From a virus, in IMG/VR virus record IMGVR_UViG_3300022752_003639, positions 32,001 to 96,000 of that record: a DNA stretch of 64,000 bases. The stretch is one strand, 5' to 3'. A program made the position numbers and the translations under genes. Each line of letters begins with the position of its first letter. Position 1 is the first letter of the stretch. This document shows positions 1,285 through 61,198 of the stretch, in pieces. The notes under the pieces were generated by a model. The model ran no database searches, was not told the origin of the DNA, and was given only the letters and a program-made list of their open reading frames with translations.

Positions 1285-3258
1285 GTGAACTTAAAAAAAC
1301 TTTTGCCTGCTTTACTTTTGTTTAATTCAGTAGCATATTCACAGGTAGAATCTTTACCAAATAGTTATAAGGTCGTAGGAATAGACACAGTCTGGCAATA
1401 TGGGTACAAAGGTTCTGGAGTAAGAGTTGCAGTTATTGATAACGGTTTTGATTTAAATCATAAAGATCTTGAAGGAAGATTTTGGAAAGCAAGCAATTTT
1501 TATGATCTTACTAGTAATGTTAAATGGGCAGGCCATGGAACTGGCATGGCTAGTATTATTGGAGCTAAGGCAGGCAATGGTGGAGTAGTAGGTGTAGCGC
1601 CAGAATCACATCTATGGTTAGCGCAAATAGGCGCTGGCCAGTACAGTCCACTTATGAGCACGGCAGCATTTAATTTAGCACTAAATTGGGCTAGCTCATG
1701 GAGTGCTTCTGTGATTAATGCTAGTCTAGGGTATGCATATGATGATAATTTTATTAAATCAGCCCGATATGATACTAAGACAAATACTTATATTGTAGAC
1801 CAATCTCTGCTAAGAACTGTAACTAAGACTGATTCATTGGCCGTGGCAACAGGCCGTAATTCTATTATTGTTATCAGCGCAGGCAACCAATCATTACCAT
1901 ATGCTAGTTTTCCTGCGCAGTTTGCTTCGAGACTAGATATCTACGGTAATCTAATCTTAGGTGGAAAAATGTTAGTGGTAGGCAGTGTTTCTGATGACGG
2001 AACAATCAGCACTTTTAGCAATAGAGCTGGCCACATTTGTTCAATGCCTGTTGCTAATACTTGCTTAGATCTTGTTAAAACTACTGATTTTTTTGTTGTA
2101 GCACCTGGAAACAAAATTCCCCAGGCACAGGCTTTAGGAAATTCTACAATTTATGGATCTGGAACCAGTGAAAGTGCAGCATTAGTCACTGGTGGTATAG
2201 CATTATTAAGGCAAGCATGGCCTCAACTACGCTCTGAACAATTAGTTAAATTAGTATTGAGTACAACTAAAGATCTCGGAGCTCCTGGCACAGATAATAT
2301 ATATGGCAGAGGTATGGTAGACTTTGCCAATGCTGCTAAATCTCAAGGTATAATAAAACTAGCCTCTGCTAATATGAAACTAGGATCCGATATACCGCAA
2401 CCTAGTAATGTTATTAATAATATTGACGGAACAAAATTATTAGGTCAGGGTAATTTTACATCATTACTGGTTTCAAGCAATATACTTAAGACTGCTCAGG
2501 TGATAGACAGCTATGATAGAAATTATACAGCAGACTTTACTCGAGCTATTGCCAAATTACCTGTTGTGTATAATCCAGATAGTCCTTGGTTATCATTTTC
2601 TAGCATGATTAAATTACCGATTGATAAAAATAAAGACTTAACCATACATAAGTCTTATAATGGATTAGCTACTGAACTGAACATTTATCAGCATAACTGG
2701 GTTTATAACCTACAGGTAGGTAATCAGCAAGATTTCAATGGCTATCTAGGTAATTCTGGATATGGATCTCTATCCTTGGGCAGTAGTTATACAAATTGGA
2801 TGATGTTAGGCATAGAAAGAAAGTTAACTGATACAACTAATCTAGTAGCAAACTATGGTCAAGGTATGACAGATATTTTGAATTCAACTTACAGCATGAT
2901 TTATACCGAACCTGGATTACGATCTGCAACATGGAGTGTCGGGCTCAAATCTAATAATATATTTTATGAGCAAGATGTTTTACAATTGAAAATAGCTAAT
3001 CCTGTGCATATCGTTAAGGGCTATGCACAGATTACGGCAGTAACAGGATATACTTATGAGGAAGATGCAGAAGGCAATTTTACAGCATCACCTGTTATTG
3101 GAAAAGAGCGCATAAATTTAGCTCAAAATAATATAAAGCCAATACTATCTTTAAGTTATAAACGATCTTTATCACATGTAAGCAATATCGGCATATCTTG
3201 GTCTGGTTCTTCAGATTCTTATAAAATGGGATTATTTTATAATTATATATTCAAATAA
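1285..3258 (+). CDS. subtilisin-like (S8) serine protease with signal peptide and C-terminal beta-rich, autotransporter-like region
   Basis: Catalytic motifs VAVIDNG, GHGT, SGTS; oxyanion SAGN; N-terminal signal peptide; aromatic-rich beta-strand C-terminus. Confidence 0.88.
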   Translation: MNLKKLLPALLLFNSVAYSQVESLPNSYKVVGIDTVWQYGYKGSGVRVAVIDNGFDLNHKDLEGRFWKASNFYDLTSNVKWAGHGTGMASIIGAKAGNGGVVGVAPESHLWLAQIGAGQYSPLMSTAAFNLALNWASSWSASVINASLGYAYDDNFIKSARYDTKTNTYIVDQSLLRTVTKTDSLAVATGRNSIIVISAGNQSLPYASFPAQFASRLDIYGNLILGGKMLVVGSVSDDGTISTFSNRAGHICSMPVANTCLDLVKTTDFFVVAPGNKIPQAQALGNSTIYGSGTSESAALVTGGIALLRQAWPQLRSEQLVKLVLSTTKDLGAPGTDNIYGRGMVDFANAAKSQGIIKLASANMKLGSDIPQPSNVINNIDGTKLLGQGNFTSLLVSSNILKTAQVIDSYDRNYTADFTRAIAKLPVVYNPDSPWLSFSSMIKLPIDKNKDLTIHKSYNGLATELNIYQHNWVYNLQVGNQQDFNGYLGNSGYGSLSLGSSYTNWMMLGIERKLTDTTNLVANYGQGMTDILNSTYSMIYTEPGLRSATWSVGLKSNNIFYEQDVLQLKIANPVHIVKGYAQITAVTGYTYEEDAEGNFTASPVIGKERINLAQNNIKPILSLSYKRSLSHVSNIGISWSGSSDSYKMGLFYNYIFK

Positions 3259-5327: not shown

Positions 5328-5912
5328 ATGCTAGTACCTATGGTAATTGAACGGACCAGTCAAGGTGAACGTGCCTTTGACATTTACAGTAGACTTTTAA
5401 ACGAACGTATTGTTTTTCTAAATGGTCCAGTAGACGACAATGTAAGTAATTTAATCATCGCTCAAATTCTACACTTAGAAAGTCAAGACTCTGACAAAGA
5501 TATTAATTTTTATATCAATAGCCCAGGCGGTATAATTACAGCAGGCATGGCTATCTATGATGTCATGCAGTTTGTTAAACCAGACATTGCCACATATGTT
5601 TTAGGGCAAGCCTGTTCTATGGGGTCATTTTTAGCACAGGCAGGCACTGCGGGTAAACGCTATATGTTGCCCCATGCACGCCATATGATTCACCAGCCCA
5701 GTGGAGGTGCTAGAGGTATGGCATCAGATATTGAAATTTCCTATAAAGAAATTATGGCCATGAAACATATGTTAACCAACCTGTATGTGAAACATAATAC
5801 CGCAGGTAAGACCTATGAAGACTTTGAGCGTGACATGGATCGCGATAAGTTTATGAGTGCAGAAGAAGCATTTGTTTATGGACTATGTGATAGGATCGTA
5901 GCCTCCAGATAA
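5328..5912 (+). CDS. clpP: ATP-dependent Clp protease proteolytic subunit
   Basis: [29 protein letters not shown] (catalytic Ser), MIHQP (His), RDMDRD. Confidence 0.96.
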
Positions 5913-5950
5913 ACTTACAAGAAAATTCTCCTCTAAGAGTAATTAAATAA

Positions 5951-6319
5951 TTGTGCTTATGGGAGAACATCATGGTCAACTTTATTTTGAATAGGCACAT
6001 AGAAAAACTACAACAATTTAATAGACAAAGAGGAGTATGGATTAGATTAAGTATATTAGTTGTTATAATTGTAAGTATAATATTGCTAGACTATTTTTTA
6101 AAAGATACTAGTCATTTTCATTACTTTTTAATAAGTTCGGGATTTATCATAGCAGTGATTTGGTGGTATTGGACAATGCAAGTTGTTAAAGAAATTATTA
6201 ACCATAAATATTACGAGACTGAATTACTTAAGATGCTAATTGCTGATATTAGAGATATTAAAAAATCAGTTCATCAAAACATGAGTATTGACAAACATAT
6301 AAAAGATACATATAATTAG
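5951..6319 (+). CDS. two-TM membrane protein
   Basis: Two hydrophobic segments; TAAATA at 5944-5949. Confidence 0.6.
   Translation: MCLWENIMVNFILNRHIEKLQQFNRQRGVWIRLSILVVIIVSIILLDYFLKDTSHFHYFLISSGFIIAVIWWYWTMQVVKEIINHKYYETELLKMLIADIRDIKKSVHQNMSIDKHIKDTYN
6288..6316 (+). promoter_or_regulatory. consensus sigma70 promoter for queD
   Basis: TTGACA(6288-6293)-17 bp-TATAAT(6311-6316), perfect consensus. Confidence 0.85.
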
Positions 6320-6324
6320 TACTC

Positions 6325-6399
6325 AGTGGACTTAGACATTCACCCCACTTTAAATATTCTGCATGTCATCAAACTTACTCAAGGAGGCAAGAGATGACA
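6325..6399 (+). promoter_or_regulatory. candidate preQ1-I-like riboswitch (pseudoknot plus alternative SD/AUG-sequestering hairpin)
   Basis: P1 AGTGG(6325-29)/CCACT(6345-49); P2 GACAT(6335-39)/ATGTC(6363-67); alternative stem TGTCATC(6364-70)/GATGACA(6393-99) covers the AUG; lies between the promoter and queD. Confidence 0.55.
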
Positions 6400-6957
6400 A
6401 GATCATCAACATTAGAACTAAAACAAAATTCTGAAACAAGCTTTTCAACATATTATCCTGTAACATACAAATATACCAGTACAAAAGAATATCATGACGC
6501 ATTTCCTTGTGCATATCGTCAATGGCGAGCTGACAGCCATTGTAATATGATACACGGTTATTCATTTTCTATGAAATTCTATTTTGGAACTAATGATTTA
6601 GATGTAAGGAACTGGGCTGCTGATTATGGCGGATTAAAAGAATTAAAAAAATTTTTAGAAGATAAATTCGATCATACATTACTGGTGGCACAAGATGATC
6701 CGGAATTTCAAACATTTAAATTACTTCAGGAGAAAAAATTAGCGAAACTTACAATATTACCTAAATTAGGTTGCGAAAGTCTAGCAGACATGCTTTACAA
6801 GTATGTCAACGCTGTTTATATTCCTGATATGTGGGGTCCAGGCGAAGCAGACAGACTATGGTGTTATCGTGTGGAAGTAAGAGAAACTCAGGCTAACATG
6901 GCTTTTAGAGAAGGTCATAGAGAATGGAATGAGGATTTATTTGCAGGCTTTGAATGA
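6394..6957 (+). CDS. queD: 6-carboxy-5,6,7,8-tetrahydropterin synthase (QueD/PTPS)
   Basis: CAYRQWRADSHCNMIHGY, DYGGLKELK, FDHT, EVRET motifs; AAGGAGG SD. Confidence 0.88.
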   Translation: MTRSSTLELKQNSETSFSTYYPVTYKYTSTKEYHDAFPCAYRQWRADSHCNMIHGYSFSMKFYFGTNDLDVRNWAADYGGLKELKKFLEDKFDHTLLVAQDDPEFQTFKLLQEKKLAKLTILPKLGCESLADMLYKYVNAVYIPDMWGPGEADRLWCYRVEVRETQANMAFREGHREWNEDLFAGFE

Positions 6958-7133
6958 AGGATTTTATTTTCTCATTAATAGGTGCAGTAATACTCGTAAT
7001 CCTTGGATGTGTTATAGGATTTTGGCTGAATATTGTAATTACACCAGATCTGCCTAATGGTTTTTACGAGTGCAGAGATTGCAGTGATAAATCATGGGCA
7101 GATACAGAACGTTGGTGGCGTAAAACAAAATAA
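6954..7133 (+). CDS. 59-aa membrane-anchored protein with CxxC
   Basis: Read manually: N-terminal TM, ECRDC; ATGA coupling with the queD stop. Confidence 0.6.
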   Translation: MKDFIFSLIGAVILVILGCVIGFWLNIVITPDLPNGFYECRDCSDKSWADTERWWRKTK

Positions 7134-7143
7134 TTAGGCAAAT

Positions 7144-8325
7144 ATGAAAAATGTAGCAGTAATTGGAGCAGGAATAGCAGGAATAACCGCTGCTTATTAT
7201 TTGACACAAGCAGGTTACAATGTTAAAGTTTATGAAAAAGAATCTTATCCTGCTATGGAATGTAGTTATGCAAATGGCGGGCAAATCTCTGTAAGTAATA
7301 GCCAAACATGGAATACTTGGTCAAATGTCTATAAGGGTATTAAATGGTTGGCTCGTAAAGATGCTCCGCTTTTATTAAGACCTAGTTTAGATTGGGATAA
7401 AGCCAAATGGCTAGCTAAGTTTTTATATCATACAGCAAATAATGAATTCGCTAGAAATACAATTAAAACAATTACACTAGGATTAGAATCACGTAAATTG
7501 TATAGTGAGATCGAAAAAGAAGAAAATATAAAATATGATCGGTTGAACAAGGGTATTTTACATATCTATAAAAATGCAAATTATTTCAATGAAGCCATGA
7601 TGTTACAAGAACTTTATGCCCACAATGGGTGCGAATGGCAAATTATTAACGATTATAGTAAATTACTTAAAATTGAACCCGCACTTGAAAAATTTGATAA
7701 CCTAGTTGGAGGTATATATACGCCTAGCGATTATACCGGAGATATTCATAAATTTTGTTTCGAATTATACAAAAAATTAGAAGAAAAATATGATGTTAAA
7801 TTTTTCTTTAATACTGAAATACTATCTATTGAAAAATTATTAGATTACGATCATATCATCATAGCCAACGGCAGTCATGCTAGACATACCAGTAAAATGC
7901 TAGGTGATAATTTACCTATCTATCCAGTAAAAGGCTATAGTATAACAATTAAGTTAGATACTTTGAGCTCATCAGAATCTGCTCCATTCGTAAGCCTTTT
8001 AGACGACGAATCTAAAATAGTAACCAGCAGACTGGGTAATCATCTCAGGGTAGCGGGTACAGCAGAAATAATAGGTGATAATTGGGACATAAGGCAAGAT
8101 AGAATCAATCCACTATTGAAATGGGTTAACAATAATTTTCCTGATATTTCAACAAGATATTACAAACCTTGGGCTTGTCTTAGACCCATGACCCCTAACA
8201 TGCTGCCTATTGTAAAACAAGGTAAAAATCCTAAGATATTTTATCATGTAGGCCATGGCCATTTAGGATGGACATTAGCCAGTGCTACTGCTAAAGAATT
8301 AGTAAGAATTGTTAAAGGAACATAA
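7144..8325 (+). CDS. FAD-dependent D-amino acid dehydrogenase (DadA-like)
   Basis: GAGIAG Rossmann motif, [40 protein letters not shown]. Confidence 0.88.
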
Positions 8326-9257
8326 TGAAAAAAATATTAGTAACAGGTGGAGCAGGTTTTTTAGGTAGCCATTTATGTGAATATCTTTTAAAAAAAGGTA
8401 ATCACGTATTGTGTGTAGATAATTATTTTACTGGAAGTATACAAAATATCCAGCACTTATTACCTAATCCCTATTTTGAATTTTTAAGACAAGATATCTG
8501 TTTTCCATTGTATGTAGAAGTAGATGAAATCTATAACTTGGCCTGCCCTGCTAGTCCTAAGTATTATCAGCTAGATCCTATACAGACCATGAAGACCAGC
8601 ATATTAGGTGCTTACAATATGTTGGGATTGGCCAAACGCACAGGTGCGAAAATTTTACAAGCCAGTACTAGTGAAGTCTATGGTGATCCTCAAATTCACC
8701 CACAGACAGAAGATTATTGGGGCAATGTTAACCCTATTGGGACTCGTGCTTGTTATGATGAAGGCAAACGTTCAGCAGAAACTCTGTTTATGGACTATAG
8801 ACGCAAACATCACGTGGATACAAAAATTGTTAGAATTTTTAATACATACGGACCAAGAGTTGGTATTGACGACGGCCGTGTGATCAGTAATTTCATAGTA
8901 CAAGCGTTAAGAGGAGAAGATATTACCATATATGGTAACGGTAACCAGACCAGGAGCTTTTGTTATGTAGATGATCTAATACGTGGCATGGTATCTATGA
9001 TGGACACCGATTTTTATACCTGCGGGCCGATAAATTTAGGTAACCCCGGTGAATTTACAATACTGGAATTAGCCAAGATTATTTTAGAAAAGACTCATAG
9101 TGTAAGCAAAATAGTATATAAAAAACTACCGGATGACGATCCATTGCAACGTAGACCAAATATAGACATGGCCAAAAAGATATTAAAATGGGAACCTAGT
9201 ATTGATTTAGGTACAGGATTATCATATACCATTGACTATTTTAAATATAGACTGTAA
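8325..9257 (+). CDS. UDP-glucuronate decarboxylase (UDP-xylose synthase-like extended SDR)
   Basis: [51 protein letters not shown]. Confidence 0.9.
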
Positions 9258-21841: not shown

Positions 21842-22597
21842 TCAAACCACTTCTTTATATATTTTTAAAACTTCTTTTACAACAGGATGCCTTTCTACAT
21901 CCTTTGTTTCGAATTTTGCCATAGCGATCATTTTTAAATCACCTCCTTCTTCTTGTAATTTGCAAAATTCAAACAAACCGTTTTCTCGAGGCCTATCTGC
22001 CTGACATAAATCTCCCGTAACTACCATTCTAGAATTTTCTCCGAGTCTGGTCAATAACATCTTCATTTGAGAAGGTGTGGCATTTTGCATTTCATCTGCT
22101 ATGACAAAAGCATTTTTAAAAGTACGCCCTCTCATATAAGCCAACGGCGAAATTTCTATAACTCCATCTTCCAACATACTTAATATTTCTCGAGGATGAT
22201 AGTATTCCTCGAAAACATCAAATATTGGTCTTGTCCAAGGTTCCATTTTTTGAATTAATGTGCCTGGTAAAAATCCGTGTTCCTCATCAACTGAAACAGC
22301 TGGTCGGGTAACAATAATTTTACTGGTTATACCTTCTTTAAGTAATTTTATAGCCATCTGGACAGCTAACATCGTTTTGCCTGTTCCCGCAGGACCGATA
22401 GCTAATATTATATATTTTTTTGGATTTATTAACAGTTCAAAATATTTTTCTTGAGACAGGTTTCTGGGAATTATACTAACTTGCTGTTTACGTTTTAGGT
22501 AAGGCTTAATCTGTATAAGGTTATTGCTCATTTCTTTTGAAAATCTAGGATCCTTTTCTAAAAAAGAATTCCGTTCACGACGCTTGGTTCTAGGCAA
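21842..22597 (-). CDS. phoH: PhoH family ATPase
   Basis: GPAGTGKT, IIVTRP, GFLPGT, LAYMRGRTF, DEMQN, LTRLG, GDLCQAD, RHPVV. Confidence 0.93.
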   Translation of the reverse strand: MPRTKRRERNSFLEKDPRFSKEMSNNLIQIKPYLKRKQQVSIIPRNLSQEKYFELLINPKKYIILAIGPAGTGKTMLAVQMAIKLLKEGITSKIIVTRPAVSVDEEHGFLPGTLIQKMEPWTRPIFDVFEEYYHPREILSMLEDGVIEISPLAYMRGRTFKNAFVIADEMQNATPSQMKMLLTRLGENSRMVVTGDLCQADRPRENGLFEFCKLQEEGGDLKMIAMAKFETKDVERHPVVKEVLKIYKEVV

Positions 22598-29783: not shown

Positions 29784-32057
29784 ATGATTTCACCAAATAA
29801 AGAACTTGAAGGAGTTTTTGAACAGGCAGTAATAAAAGCTATGAAAATGCATCATGAGTATATCACTTTAGAGCATTTTTTACATTGTTTAATTAATAGT
29901 CAAGAACTTAACAAAATTTTAACTGACTTTGGGGCAGACCTAACTAGTTTAAATAGCGATTTAGATAGATATTTAGAAGAAGAACTATCTAATATTGTCA
30001 ATCTCGAGATACAAAAACCTAGGAAAACTCAAACATTTGACAGAGTATTAAACAAAACATTTACTACAGTTCTTTTTGGCGGAAAAACTGTCATCGAACC
30101 AATAGATTGTTTACTTGCAATATTTACAGAAAAGAAAAGTTATGCTCATTATTTTCTTAAACGAGCAAAAATAGATAAAGATAAATTGATTAACTTTTTA
30201 CAAAAAGAAAATATAAAAGAAGTGGTAGAGGATGAAACAGGTGAAACAAGATTACATCCACACTTAGAAAAACTTCTAAATCAGTTTTGCGTAAATTTGA
30301 CATTAAAAGCTAAAAATAAAAAAATAGATCCTGTTATAGGAAGAGAAAAAGAAATTGAAGAAGTTCAATTAGTGTTGGCAAGACGTAATAAAAGTAACGT
30401 AATTTTAATAGGAGACCCAGGAGTAGGAAAAACTGCTATAGCAGAAGGACTTGCTAAAAATATTGTAGAAGATAATGTTCCCTCTTTTATTAAAGAACAC
30501 AGTGTCTACAGTTTAGATATTAGTTCACTACTTGCCGGTTCAAAATATAGAGGTGATTTTGAAGAAAGATTAAAAACTGTTTTAACTGCCTTAGAAAGAA
30601 AGAAAAATTGTATATTGTTCATAGATGAAGCTCATATGATGAATGGTGCAGGCGCAGCCAGCGGCAACAGCAATGATATGGCTAATATGTTAAAGCCAAT
30701 ACTAACAAAAGGAACTATTAAAGTAGTTGCTAGTACTACATGGGAAGAATTTCGTAAACATTTTGAAAAAGATCGTGCATTGATGAGACGTTTTCAACGT
30801 GTAGTAATTGATGAGCCTAGTGAGGATACTTGTATAAAAATTCTTAAAGGTGTAAAAAAATATTACGAAAAACATCACGGTGTAAAAATTACTAATCAAG
30901 CATTGTTAGATGCAGTAAGTTATTCAGTCAAGTATATTCCTGATAAAAAATTGCCAGACAAAGCATTAGACCTTATTGACTGTGCTTGTGCTCGGTTTAA
31001 GGTAAAAGACGAAGAAAACGGTGTAGTAGACCATGAGGAAATTGTTTTTGAAGTTGCTAAGATAGCAAATCTTCCTATAGAACAGGTAGGTGCTAAAGAA
31101 TCAGTAAATCTTGAAAACTTGGACAAAACACTACGTCAAAAAATCTTTGGGCAAGAAAAGGCCATAGAAAGTTTAGTTGATAAAATCTATATTAGTCAAG
31201 CAGGTCTTAAAGCAGTTGATAAACCTATTGGTAGCTTTTTGTTTGTTGGGCCAACTGGAGTAGGTAAAACTGAAACAGCAAAGCAACTAGCCACTGGGCT
31301 AGGGATTAAACTAATAAGATTTGATATGAGTGAGTTTCAAGAAAAACATTCAGTGGCTAAATTTTTAGGCAGTCCGCCAGGATATGTTGGGTTTGAAGAA
31401 AATGCAGGTCAACTTATTACCAGTCTACAAGAAAATCCTAACTGCGTACTATTGCTCGACGAGGTAGAAAAGGCACATCCCGACGTACTTAGTATCTTAT
31501 TACAACTTATGGATAATGGATTTATAACAGGCAGCAATGGTAAAAAAGCAGATGGACGTAATGCTTTAATTATTATGACTTCAAACTTAGGTGCTGCAGA
31601 TGCTGAACGCAATTCTGTAGGGTTTGGTAGTCTAGAAAGAGACGGCGACCCTAAAGATGCTGTGAACAGATTTTTTGCGCCTGAATTTAGAAACCGTTTA
31701 GATGGTATGGTAAAATTTGGAAAACTTGATAAAATTACCATGGTAAAAATTGTAAACAAATTTATAGATGATCTAAATGTATTAATTAAAGAAAAAAATA
31801 TTCATGTTAGACCTAATTTAGCTGCGACTGATTTCTTAATCGCCAAAGGGTTTAATTCAAAAATGGGAGCTAGACCTTTGTCACGAGCTATTGACGAACA
31901 TATCAAGAAACCCCTTAGTAAAGAAATTCTTTTCGGAAAACTTAATAACGGCGGGCTTGTAGAATTAGATATTATAGATGATAAAATTGTATTCAATATA
32001 TTAGATATAATGCCTGTAAAAACTAAAAAACAAAGCGTTACAACGGAAATTGAATAA
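29784..32057 (+). CDS. clpA: ATP-dependent Clp protease ATPase subunit (ClpA-like)
   Basis: Clp-N domain; two AAA+ modules GDPGVGKT and GPTGVGKT; LFIDEAH; MGARPL; no ClpB middle coil. Confidence 0.9.
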   Translation: MISPNKELEGVFEQAVIKAMKMHHEYITLEHFLHCLINSQELNKILTDFGADLTSLNSDLDRYLEEELSNIVNLEIQKPRKTQTFDRVLNKTFTTVLFGGKTVIEPIDCLLAIFTEKKSYAHYFLKRAKIDKDKLINFLQKENIKEVVEDETGETRLHPHLEKLLNQFCVNLTLKAKNKKIDPVIGREKEIEEVQLVLARRNKSNVILIGDPGVGKTAIAEGLAKNIVEDNVPSFIKEHSVYSLDISSLLAGSKYRGDFEERLKTVLTALERKKNCILFIDEAHMMNGAGAASGNSNDMANMLKPILTKGTIKVVASTTWEEFRKHFEKDRALMRRFQRVVIDEPSEDTCIKILKGVKKYYEKHHGVKITNQALLDAVSYSVKYIPDKKLPDKALDLIDCACARFKVKDEENGVVDHEEIVFEVAKIANLPIEQVGAKESVNLENLDKTLRQKIFGQEKAIESLVDKIYISQAGLKAVDKPIGSFLFVGPTGVGKTETAKQLATGLGIKLIRFDMSEFQEKHSVAKFLGSPPGYVGFEENAGQLITSLQENPNCVLLLDEVEKAHPDVLSILLQLMDNGFITGSNGKKADGRNALIIMTSNLGAADAERNSVGFGSLERDGDPKDAVNRFFAPEFRNRLDGMVKFGKLDKITMVKIVNKFIDDLNVLIKEKNIHVRPNLAATDFLIAKGFNSKMGARPLSRAIDEHIKKPLSKEILFGKLNNGGLVELDIIDDKIVFNILDIMPVKTKKQSVTTEIE

Positions 32058-60331: not shown

Positions 60332-61198
60332 ATGAGTAAACTTAAAGTATCAGAACTTTTTTACAGTGTGCAAGGTGAAGGAAGATACATGGGTGTTCCC
60401 AGTGTGTTCCTTCGTGTATTTGGTTGTAATTTTACATGCGACGGATTTGGAATGCCAAAAGGAGAAAAATCCAATGAACGACATATTATCGCCGAAAATA
60501 TTTCAAGCATTACACAATACAGAGATCTACCTTTGGTTCATACAGGGTGCGATTCTTATGCTAGTTGGGATCCTAAGTTTAAGGATCTTAGTCCTGTGCT
60601 CGAAACAGATAGTATTGTGGACACAATCATGGATATGCTCCCTCACAAAGAATGGAGGAAAGAACACCTAGTTATAACAGGAGGAGAACCACTTCTAGGT
60701 TGGCAGCGTAGTTATCCTGACTTACTTAATCATCCTAAAATGAAAGGACTTACAGAAATAACGTTTGAAACAAACGGGACTCAAGAAATTTCACGGAATT
60801 TTAGTGAATATCTTAATGATTGGCTAGCGCCAGATGATCAAACACAATTCGAAAACTGGAGAGAATTAACCTTTTCAGTAAGTCCTAAATTATCAGTTTC
60901 TGGAGAACGTTGGGAAGATGCCATAAAACCAGATATCGTAGTTTATTATGAATCATTTGGCTATACATACTTAAAATTTGTAGTAGCAAGTAACGAAGAT
61001 GTAGCAGAAGCAGAAGATGCGGTAAACGAGTATAGAAAGGCTGGATTTAAAGGACCAGTTTACATAATGCCATTAGGCGGTGTTGAATCAGTATATAGCT
61101 TAAATAATAAAAATGTAGCACTCATGGCTATGAAAAAAGGATGGCGTTATAGTGATAGGCTTCAGGTGCCGCTCTTTAAGAACGCATGGTCGACATGA
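60332..61198 (+). CDS. queE: 7-carboxy-7-deazaguanine synthase (radical SAM)
   Basis: ELFYSVQGEG, FLRVFGCNFTC ... GCDS, ITGGEP, FETNGT, SVSPK, YSDRLQV. Confidence 0.9.
   Translation: MSKLKVSELFYSVQGEGRYMGVPSVFLRVFGCNFTCDGFGMPKGEKSNERHIIAENISSITQYRDLPLVHTGCDSYASWDPKFKDLSPVLETDSIVDTIMDMLPHKEWRKEHLVITGGEPLLGWQRSYPDLLNHPKMKGLTEITFETNGTQEISRNFSEYLNDWLAPDDQTQFENWRELTFSVSPKLSVSGERWEDAIKPDIVVYYESFGYTYLKFVVASNEDVAEAEDAVNEYRKAGFKGPVYIMPLGGVESVYSLNNKNVALMAMKKGWRYSDRLQVPLFKNAWST

Follow-up and report, generated by a model that had tools for sequence, protein, structure and literature searches.

New riboswitch classes are rare, and few are known from phages. In the add adenine riboswitch of Vibrio vulnificus, a translational ON switch, the aptamer helix and a helix that sequesters the Shine-Dalgarno (SD) sequence and the AUG share one strand. 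The SAM-II/SAM-V, guanidine-III, NAD+-II and fluoride riboswitches have H-type pseudoknot aptamers, all represented in Rfam, and the THF-II (folE motif) riboswitch is a hairpin with internal loops that works as an OFF switch and recognizes a guanine-faced pterin. Riboswitches for preQ1 repress their genes by sequestering the SD sequence, and the pocket of class I (preQ1-I) combines a specificity C in loop L2, G-C pairs atop helix P1, pyrimidines in L1 and an A-rich L3 (PMC10622847). Here we describe the leader of a queD-like gene in a 64,000-nucleotide stretch of viral DNA (the window: positions 32,001 to 96,000 of IMG/VR record IMGVR_UViG_3300022752_003639; coordinates are those of the window unless a contig is named). 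A 43-nt H-type pseudoknot (6325-6367) stands at the 5' end of the queD-like transcript, and we consider it probable, well short of certainty, that the leader acts in cis as a translational ON switch whose aptamer is a new pseudoknot of this type.

The elements named in a preliminary description of this DNA, which were a promoter, P1, P2, a hairpin over the ribosome-binding site (RBS), the SD and the AUG, are all present in the sequence (Table 1). P2 reaches further than the helix given there: past a mismatch between U6340 and C6362, C6341 pairs with G6361 and A6342 with U6360 (P2b), so that P2 has 7-8 bp in total, with the conserved U.C mismatch between its two parts. A consensus was drawn from 134 distinct instances of the motif. 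P1 reads A-G-Y-G-G / C-C-R-C-U and occurs in six pair combinations, with the two junction-side G-C pairs invariant; it is 99.6-100% paired in the three alignments considered below, where three of its five pairs covary (AU/UA; GC/CG/UA; CG/UA/AU). L1 is NCU followed by 0-6 variable nt, its C and U invariant or nearly so. P2a consists of 3-5 (up to 7) variable pairs and shows compensatory changes in all five. In P2b, A-U is replaced by G-C in 4-6 sequences (UCG with CGC) and C-G by A-U (UAA with UUC) in a distinct lineage that came to light among the loci chosen by protein; its sequences (L337, L338, L342, L343 and L345, at about 540-587) read UAAUCCC...UUCUUC, with both sides changed. L2 is Y(Y)C and its last C is invariant, including at loci picked by protein similarity only. 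The adenines at positions 3, 5 and 7 of L3 and its terminal UC are likewise invariant. At least nine unpaired positions thus do not vary (L1 CU, U6340, C6344, three L3 adenines, the L3 UC and C6362), and they persist while the downstream protein drops to 32% identity. Mutual information gives a hint of co-variation between the middle pair of P1 and L3 positions 4 and 6, a signal inseparable from phylogeny.

Because the folding energy of the single sequence is ordinary for its composition, the evidence beyond chance is comparative. In a gapless alignment of 43 sequences (A2), 91.7% of the pairs are formed and covariation is 0.413, against 0.163±0.014 in shuffles and at most 0.08 in slid controls, with double changes in 8 of 12 pairs. 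The 91 sequences of A3, which lie outside those used to build covariance model R1, are 94.1% paired and give 0.375 against 0.121±0.009 (slid, at most 0.058), with double changes in 9 of 12 pairs. The 53 distinct sequences of A4, from loci selected by protein similarity only, are 96.6% paired and give 0.505 against 0.137±0.014 (slid, at most 0.069), with 8 of 12 pairs doubly changed. None of 500 shuffles reached the observed covariation in any of the three, and with the alignments combined compensatory change is seen in 10 of the 12 pairs. An anchored, independent count for P2a gives 4.01 of 5 pairs, compared with 2.67±0.10 when the tails are shuffled among sequences. Within P2a, G.U outnumbers A.C (66 vs 32), which points to RNA of the sense strand. 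Judging by these sequences, the pseudoknot is kept, with compensating base changes, across hundreds of uncultured freshwater phages.

The minimum free energy (MFE) fold of the leader is the hairpin over the RBS (the anti-RBS hairpin) plus P1. In the window this hairpin falls from -10.5 to -1.7 kcal/mol when the 3' strand of P2 is blocked, and in 133 leaders the mean for the hairpin between P2 and the start codon falls from -8.5 to -3.7 kcal/mol when the eight P2 3' nucleotides are kept unpaired. In 131 of the 133, the partners of these nucleotides lie in the SD/AUG zone. At least six versions of the anti-RBS helix exist (UGUCAUC/GAUGACA, GCCUAUG/CAUAGG, GCCAUUG/CAAUGGC, GCCUAUAU/AUAUAGG, UGUCGUC/GAUGGCA and UGUCAUA/UAUGACA), some covering the AUG and others the SD, and the 5' arm always starts inside P2. 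Native arms average -8.48 kcal/mol, versus -6.71±0.16 when swapped between classes and -4.49±0.17 when shuffled. By its sequence, P2 is mutually exclusive with the hairpin that covers the SD or AUG. With the initiation penalty counted, the P2 duplex comes to about -5.6 kcal/mol, comparable in size to the hairpin, as a switch requires. Since the hairpin sequence differs by lineage and yet its overlap with P2 is kept, ON logic is the best reading, and since no terminator-like site was found in 5900-7200, control would be translational. The pseudoknot, the exclusive folds and the ON logic of the preliminary description are in this way borne out: P1 and P2 covary above the shuffled and slid controls in all three alignments, and the anti-RBS arms stand above swapped and shuffled ones.

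Table 1. Features of the queD-like leader and of the presumed pathway in the window.
Feature	Position	Strand	Remarks
sigma70-type promoter	6288-6316	+	TTGACA 6288-6293, 17-nt spacer, TATAAT 6311-6316; 12/12 match
P1, 5' strand AGUGG	6325-6329	+	pairs with 6345-6349
L1 ACUUA	6330-6334	+	first three nt fit the conserved NCU
P2a, 5' strand GACAU	6335-6339	+	pairs with 6363-6367
U6340 and P2b 5' strand (C6341, A6342)	6340-6342	+	U6340 faces C6362, conserved mismatch
L2 CC	6343-6344	+	C6344 invariant, unpaired, just 5' of the P1 3' strand
P1, 3' strand CCACU	6345-6349	+	pairing and covariation in three alignments
L3 linker UUAAAUAUUC	6350-6359	+	consensus NUANAAAYUC, length fixed at 10
P2, 3' strand	6360-6367	+	U6360 and G6361 (P2b), C6362 mismatch, AUGUC 6363-6367 (P2a)
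anti-RBS hairpin	6364-6399	+	UGUCAUC 6364-6370 / GAUGACA 6393-6399; MFE fold; shares 6364-6367 with P2
anti-RBS inner helices	6374-6376 / 6389-6391; 6378-6380 / 6384-6386	+	CUU/AAG; CUC/GAG
SD and start codon	6381-6396	+	AAGGAGG 6381-6387, ATG 6394-6396; read from the sequence
regulated gene, phage QueD-like T-fold protein	6394-6957	+	187 aa, CxxxHGY type; PF01242, phrog_2389
QueE-like radical SAM gene	60332-61198	+	same presumed pathway, not under the motif; 67% identity to the QueE-like queD neighbor of relatives

The promoter is the sole 12/12 match within 5900-7200 and lies in the last codons of the upstream open reading frame (ORF) 5951-6319; it places the predicted transcript start at about 6323. 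Among the homologous leaders, 39 of 133 show a hexamer resembling a -10 element at 4-13 nt upstream of P1. In type-B leaders such as L012 2960-3000, CUAUAAU, which in DNA is TATAAT-like, is a frequent loop sequence of the anti-SD hairpin; this loop could be a second promoter, giving a transcript that lacks the aptamer, or simply reflect shared ancestry.

We propose a model where the RNA, beginning some 2 nt before P1, would adopt one of two folds. In the OFF state, 6364-6370 would pair with 6393-6399 and, with the two inner helices, bury the SD and AUG. In the ON state, that same 6364-6370 strand would go into P2 (6335-6342/6360-6367) of the pseudoknot, with P1 at 6325-6329/6345-6349, leaving the RBS free. 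A small molecule may stabilize the knot, as the unpaired nucleotides are invariant while the protein diverges to 32% identity. It would sit at the P1/P2 junction or in the U.C gap of P2, near C6344, the top G-C pairs of P1, the CU of L1 and the adenines of L3.

The preliminary description had likened this RNA to preQ1-I, and several features of that class (RF00522, types I-III) do recur: a small H-type pseudoknot, a 5-bp P1, a leader in the 7-deazaguanine pathway and translational control. C6344 corresponds in its topological place to the specificity C of preQ1-I (PMC10622847), and the junction-end G-C pairs of P1, a pyrimidine-rich L1 and an A-rich L3 are also present. Membership in the class nevertheless does not hold. 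P2 is longer (7-8 bp, against 3-4 bp) and contains a conserved U.C mismatch, and L2 is just 2-3 nt. L3 (NUANAAAYUC) has a fixed length of 10 nt and a YUC end in place of the 4-5 conserved adenines that precede P2 in preQ1-I, and is thus no uninterrupted run of A. The SD follows P2 at a distance of about 14 nt, whereas in preQ1-I part of the SD is inside P2 or P2 feeds a terminator; P2 competes here with the anti-RBS hairpin, predicting ON instead of OFF behavior; and the queD-leader knot occurs in phage DNA only. Rfam 15 gave no preQ1 or other relevant match over the whole window at the gathering score, and no match to preQ1 or another pseudoknot riboswitch at E<=10 in 6200-6500 or in a type-B relative (L003 2890-3020). 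What the leader does have are the two parts of a riboswitch in the general sense, a conserved, structured 5'-leader aptamer and a mutually exclusive alternative platform.

Other known RNAs resemble the leader in one respect and differ in the rest. As in the add riboswitch, folding of the aptamer would free the RBS through a shared strand, but purine riboswitches are three-way junctions rather than pseudoknots and the queD leader has no sequence or Rfam similarity to them. The SAM-II/SAM-V, guanidine-III, NAD+-II and fluoride aptamers are likewise compact pseudoknots with loop-helix triples, but there is no match to them at E<=10 and their gene contexts are unrelated. THF-II controls a neighboring step of the same GTP-to-pterin branch; it is, however, a hairpin and an OFF switch, and the queD leader has no Rfam match to it. 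By analogy, the RNA may combine a junction binder of the preQ1-I type with an ON platform of the add type. No description of the motif was found in the literature searched, whose coverage did not extend to subscription papers.

The motif is near-exclusively tied to one QueD family and spans two protein subfamilies. Model R1 found exactly one match in each of 91 loci, 739 kb altogether. The home record of the window has 138 kb and an estimated completeness of 35%, which implies a giant phage; R1 found one match of 59.4 bits there, and a second (G000 8209-8236), weak at 28 nt and E=0.1, was taken as chance. The folE of the home record has no motif in the R1 scan. Among 80 loci selected by protein, the motif lies directly upstream of the gene in 74 and always ends 15-85 nt before it. 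The six loci lacking a match comprise two incomplete contigs and four that are truly devoid of the motif; these (L295, L328, L332 and L344, at 480-600) belong to the second QueD subfamily and have ordinary short leaders, so the element was lost or never gained in their lineages. The queD homologue is the next gene after the motif in 131 of 134 instances, with one extra ORF between in the other three. Close relatives of the window protein are encoded on at least 587 viral contigs, and relatives of the second subfamily, 32-41% identical to it, on at least 599.

A degenerate 23-nt pattern derived from the conserved leader was used to scan viral and prokaryote sequences. At least 120 viral contigs matched, nearly all with P1 and P2 complementarity and all with a queD homologue. 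In 185,579 prokaryote genomes (bacteria and archaea, one per species) there were 56 matches, three of them real. The other 53 are chance, on contigs that lack a queD homologue and nearly all lacking P1 (4 have a chance P1). The real copies (L095, L123 and L135) lie with queD on 5.5-8 kb contigs in metagenome-assembled genomes (MAGs) of Bacteroidota, labeled Crocinitomicaceae, Chitinophagales and 'Bacteroidetes'. They are probably binned phage DNA, and as such give a weak hint that Bacteroidota are the hosts. Searches by blastn with the locus and with the 81-nt leader yielded no true match in 50,697 cultured phage records. In lake metagenomes (runs X6 and X8), the summed contig depth over the aptamer (6335-6388) is 7-8 times that of its flanks, making it the most conserved or shared piece of the locus among co-occurring phages. 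In two metatranscriptome libraries only short contigs of relatives cover the aptamer; these show neither transcript starts, strand nor level, and with DNA carry-over possible they are not proof of transcription.

The regulated gene itself departs from canonical QueD. Its product matches PF01242 (PTPS/T-fold; E=3.8e-17, 62.8 bits against a cut-off of 22.4) and the 'QueD-like' family phrog_2389 (E=7e-37) but, at 34.8 bits, misses the 89.25 cut-off of the NCBIfam QueD equivalog TIGR03367. The signature of QueD is CxxxHGH, comprising the catalytic Cys and two zinc-binding His (PMC10516641). The window protein reads CNMIHGY instead, and C-x3-HGY is found in 205 of 205 homologues examined, in which the first zinc His of E. 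coli QueD is also replaced by Tyr or Phe (A[Y/F]RQW). Either metal binding or the chemistry would differ from QueD in this CxxxHGY family. The same signature and His replacement occur in the cultured phages ACP17, R5C and Me-ZS1, and tblastn shows 44-52% identity to the QueD of cultured phages that have 7-deazaguanine clusters. In Microcystis phage Me-ZS1 this QueD type is annotated within a queE-queC-queD-folE-tgt cluster; it is found with queC and folE in Dinoroseobacter phage R5C and with folE in Acidovorax phage ACP17. The name queD of the preliminary description survives on this context and fails on the curated model and the motif; 'QueD-like' is the label that context justifies.

In its set of pathway genes the home phage matches Cellulophaga phage phiST, in which deoxyguanosine is replaced by 7-deazaguanine (PMC10516641). 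That phage has FolE, QueD and QueE and no QueC or Pfam-detectable TGT (PMC10516641), the same set as in the home record and five near-complete relatives. No RNA element has been described for phiST, and the parallel is one of gene sets, DNA modification in the present phages being hypothetical. The pathway genes are scattered in the home phage, with folE at G000 21929-22465, outside the window, and queD and a QueE-like gene at 6394 and 60332 of the window. The QueE-like gene had been overlooked in the preliminary inventory, whose report of neither QueC nor QueF stands: the home record has no convincing QueC or TGT, and no QueF was found. A relative's QueE-like protein has QueE models as its top NCBIfam matches, every one below its cut-off. 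The near-complete relatives (L073, L160, L158, L209 and L184; 86-100% complete, 303-383 kb) carry FolE in 5/5 and a QueE-like protein in 4-5/5 (4/5 strong), with Pfam-detectable TGT or DpdA in 0/5 and, for QueC, no more than partial PP-loop matches.

What might such a leader sense? As C6344, the top of P1, L1 and L3 mirror the preQ1-I pocket, a guanine-faced ligand is a reasonable guess. We speculate, by analogy, that it is a heterocycle of the pathway: 7,8-dihydroneopterin triphosphate (H2NTP) or a related pterin, acting as a feed-forward signal, or else 7-carboxy-7-deazaguanine (CDG), 7-deazaguanine or preQ0. Only tentatively, as a plausible proposal that falls somewhat short of probable, do we suggest that the leader represents a new, phage-confined riboswitch class that would sense a guanine-faced intermediate on the way from GTP to 7-deazaguanine (H2NTP or another pterin, CDG, 7-deazaguanine) and turn QueD translation ON.

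Several points weigh against an ON switch with a metabolite ligand. ON control of a biosynthetic gene by a metabolite of its own pathway is unusual, and the case for a ligand is drawn from conservation. ACP17, R5C and Me-ZS1 leave no space for a leader, since queD adjoins or overlaps the gene before it, so some lineages manage without this control. In type-B leaders the overlap of P2 with the anti-SD stem is only 2 nt (CC), and there the exclusivity of the two folds would rest on the loss of two G-C pairs. As to the fold itself, the MFE of the single sequence (-15.2 kcal/mol, z=-0.80) is no better than chance, pseudoknot energies are not properly computable with the tools used, and the shuffle statistics are inflated by the relatedness of the sequences. 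Against kinship as the whole cause of the covariation stand the slid controls and the occurrence of several independent types of helix.

The strict tie of the motif to one gene family, a trait of autoregulatory leaders, would also suit a binding site for a protein that tips the balance between knot and hairpin, be it a translational regulator of phage or host origin or the QueD-like product of the gene. Compact pseudoknots with invariant loop bases are also typical of protein operators, rpsO/S15 being an example (PMC3985624), and metabolite binding is for its part a deduction. An autoregulatory partner would, however, be expected to co-vary with its RNA, and the motif stays the same in both subfamilies and while protein identity drops to 32%. 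RNA binding is not known for T-fold enzymes, and no candidate regulator gene is conserved nearby, the most frequent neighbor, FolE, being present at only 56 of 134 loci. We regard a protein site as unlikely. We are slightly more doubtful of a purely physical role, in which the knot would act, ligand-free, as a 5' mRNA stabilizer, a folding chaperone for the RBS or a structure sensitive to temperature or Mg2+. It does stand at the extreme 5' end of the transcript, and the energies of the two folds are close enough for temperature or ions to tip the balance. But the invariance of at least nine unpaired positions over hundreds of divergent phages is beyond the needs of a stabilizer or thermometer, and the repeated re-invention of an anti-RBS helix overlapping P2 implies regulated switching.

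That the knot is instead a divergent preQ1-I member, a 'type IV' binding preQ1 or preQ0, strikes us as improbable. The order of H-type elements, the invariant C, the G-C top of P1, the L1 pyrimidines and the A-rich L3 all speak for it (PMC10622847), as does the queuosine/7-deazaguanine gene context; RF00522, however, finds no match at the gathering score or at E<=10, and P2 length and its U.C mismatch, L2, the length and YUC end of L3, the position of the SD outside P2 and the ON logic all differ. These phages moreover lack QueC and so probably make no preQ0 or preQ1. Hardly credible, finally, is a chance or non-functional structure, a leader peptide or a site acting at the DNA level. The z-score of only -0.8 and an AUG in the 3' strand of P2 in the window would speak for such readings, but compensatory changes far exceed both shuffled and slid controls and G.U is tolerated on the sense strand. 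The leader-peptide reading was rejected, the AUG in P2 being lost in most relatives (AAGUC, GUGUC, UGCC, CGCC, AGCC, GUCC).

The surroundings of the gene vary among the 134 loci with a motif-queD unit. FolE (GTP cyclohydrolase I) lies upstream at 56 of them and a QueE-like radical SAM protein downstream at 44. Also recorded are a HIT protein and a glycosyltransferase-like protein (34 loci each), a cytidylyltransferase-like protein (32), an SDR epimerase/dehydratase (26), UvdE (25) and a purine phosphoribosyltransferase-like protein (18). The HIT, purine phosphoribosyltransferase-like and cytidylyltransferase-like genes, together with MazG genes, stand near queD in many relatives and may indicate deazapurine chemistry at the nucleotide level rather than DNA base exchange. 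Sugar-modifying genes follow queD in many relatives (L145 1735-6578; L142 1839-6656), the set comprising a GT2-like protein, an SDR epimerase/dehydratase, a DegT aminotransferase, a TPP enzyme and a 668-aa B12-binding radical SAM protein. In the window, a 657-aa subtilase (1285-3258) and a ClpP protease (5328-5912; E=1e-76) precede queD on the same strand. Directly 3' of queD are a 59-aa ORF and then, in 7144-9257 (+), a D-amino-acid-dehydrogenase-like FAD oxidoreductase (NF009074, 463 bits, just below the cut-off) and an SDR epimerase/dehydratase.

We know of no riboswitch that controls a DNA-hypermodification pathway. With hundreds of natural variants, textbook covariation, a minimal aptamer of 43 nt and a clear ON platform, the queD-like leader is directly testable, and if it binds a pterin or deazapurine it would also make a useful tool as a small ON-switch aptamer. 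The ligand could reveal an unrecognized intermediate or signal in the 7-deazaguanine chemistry of phages that lack QueC and a recognizable DpdA, and its identity would tell what metabolite is followed by giant freshwater phages in the course of infection. If the proposed switch is real, a giant phage times or gates its own DNA hypermodification with a metabolite-sensing RNA.

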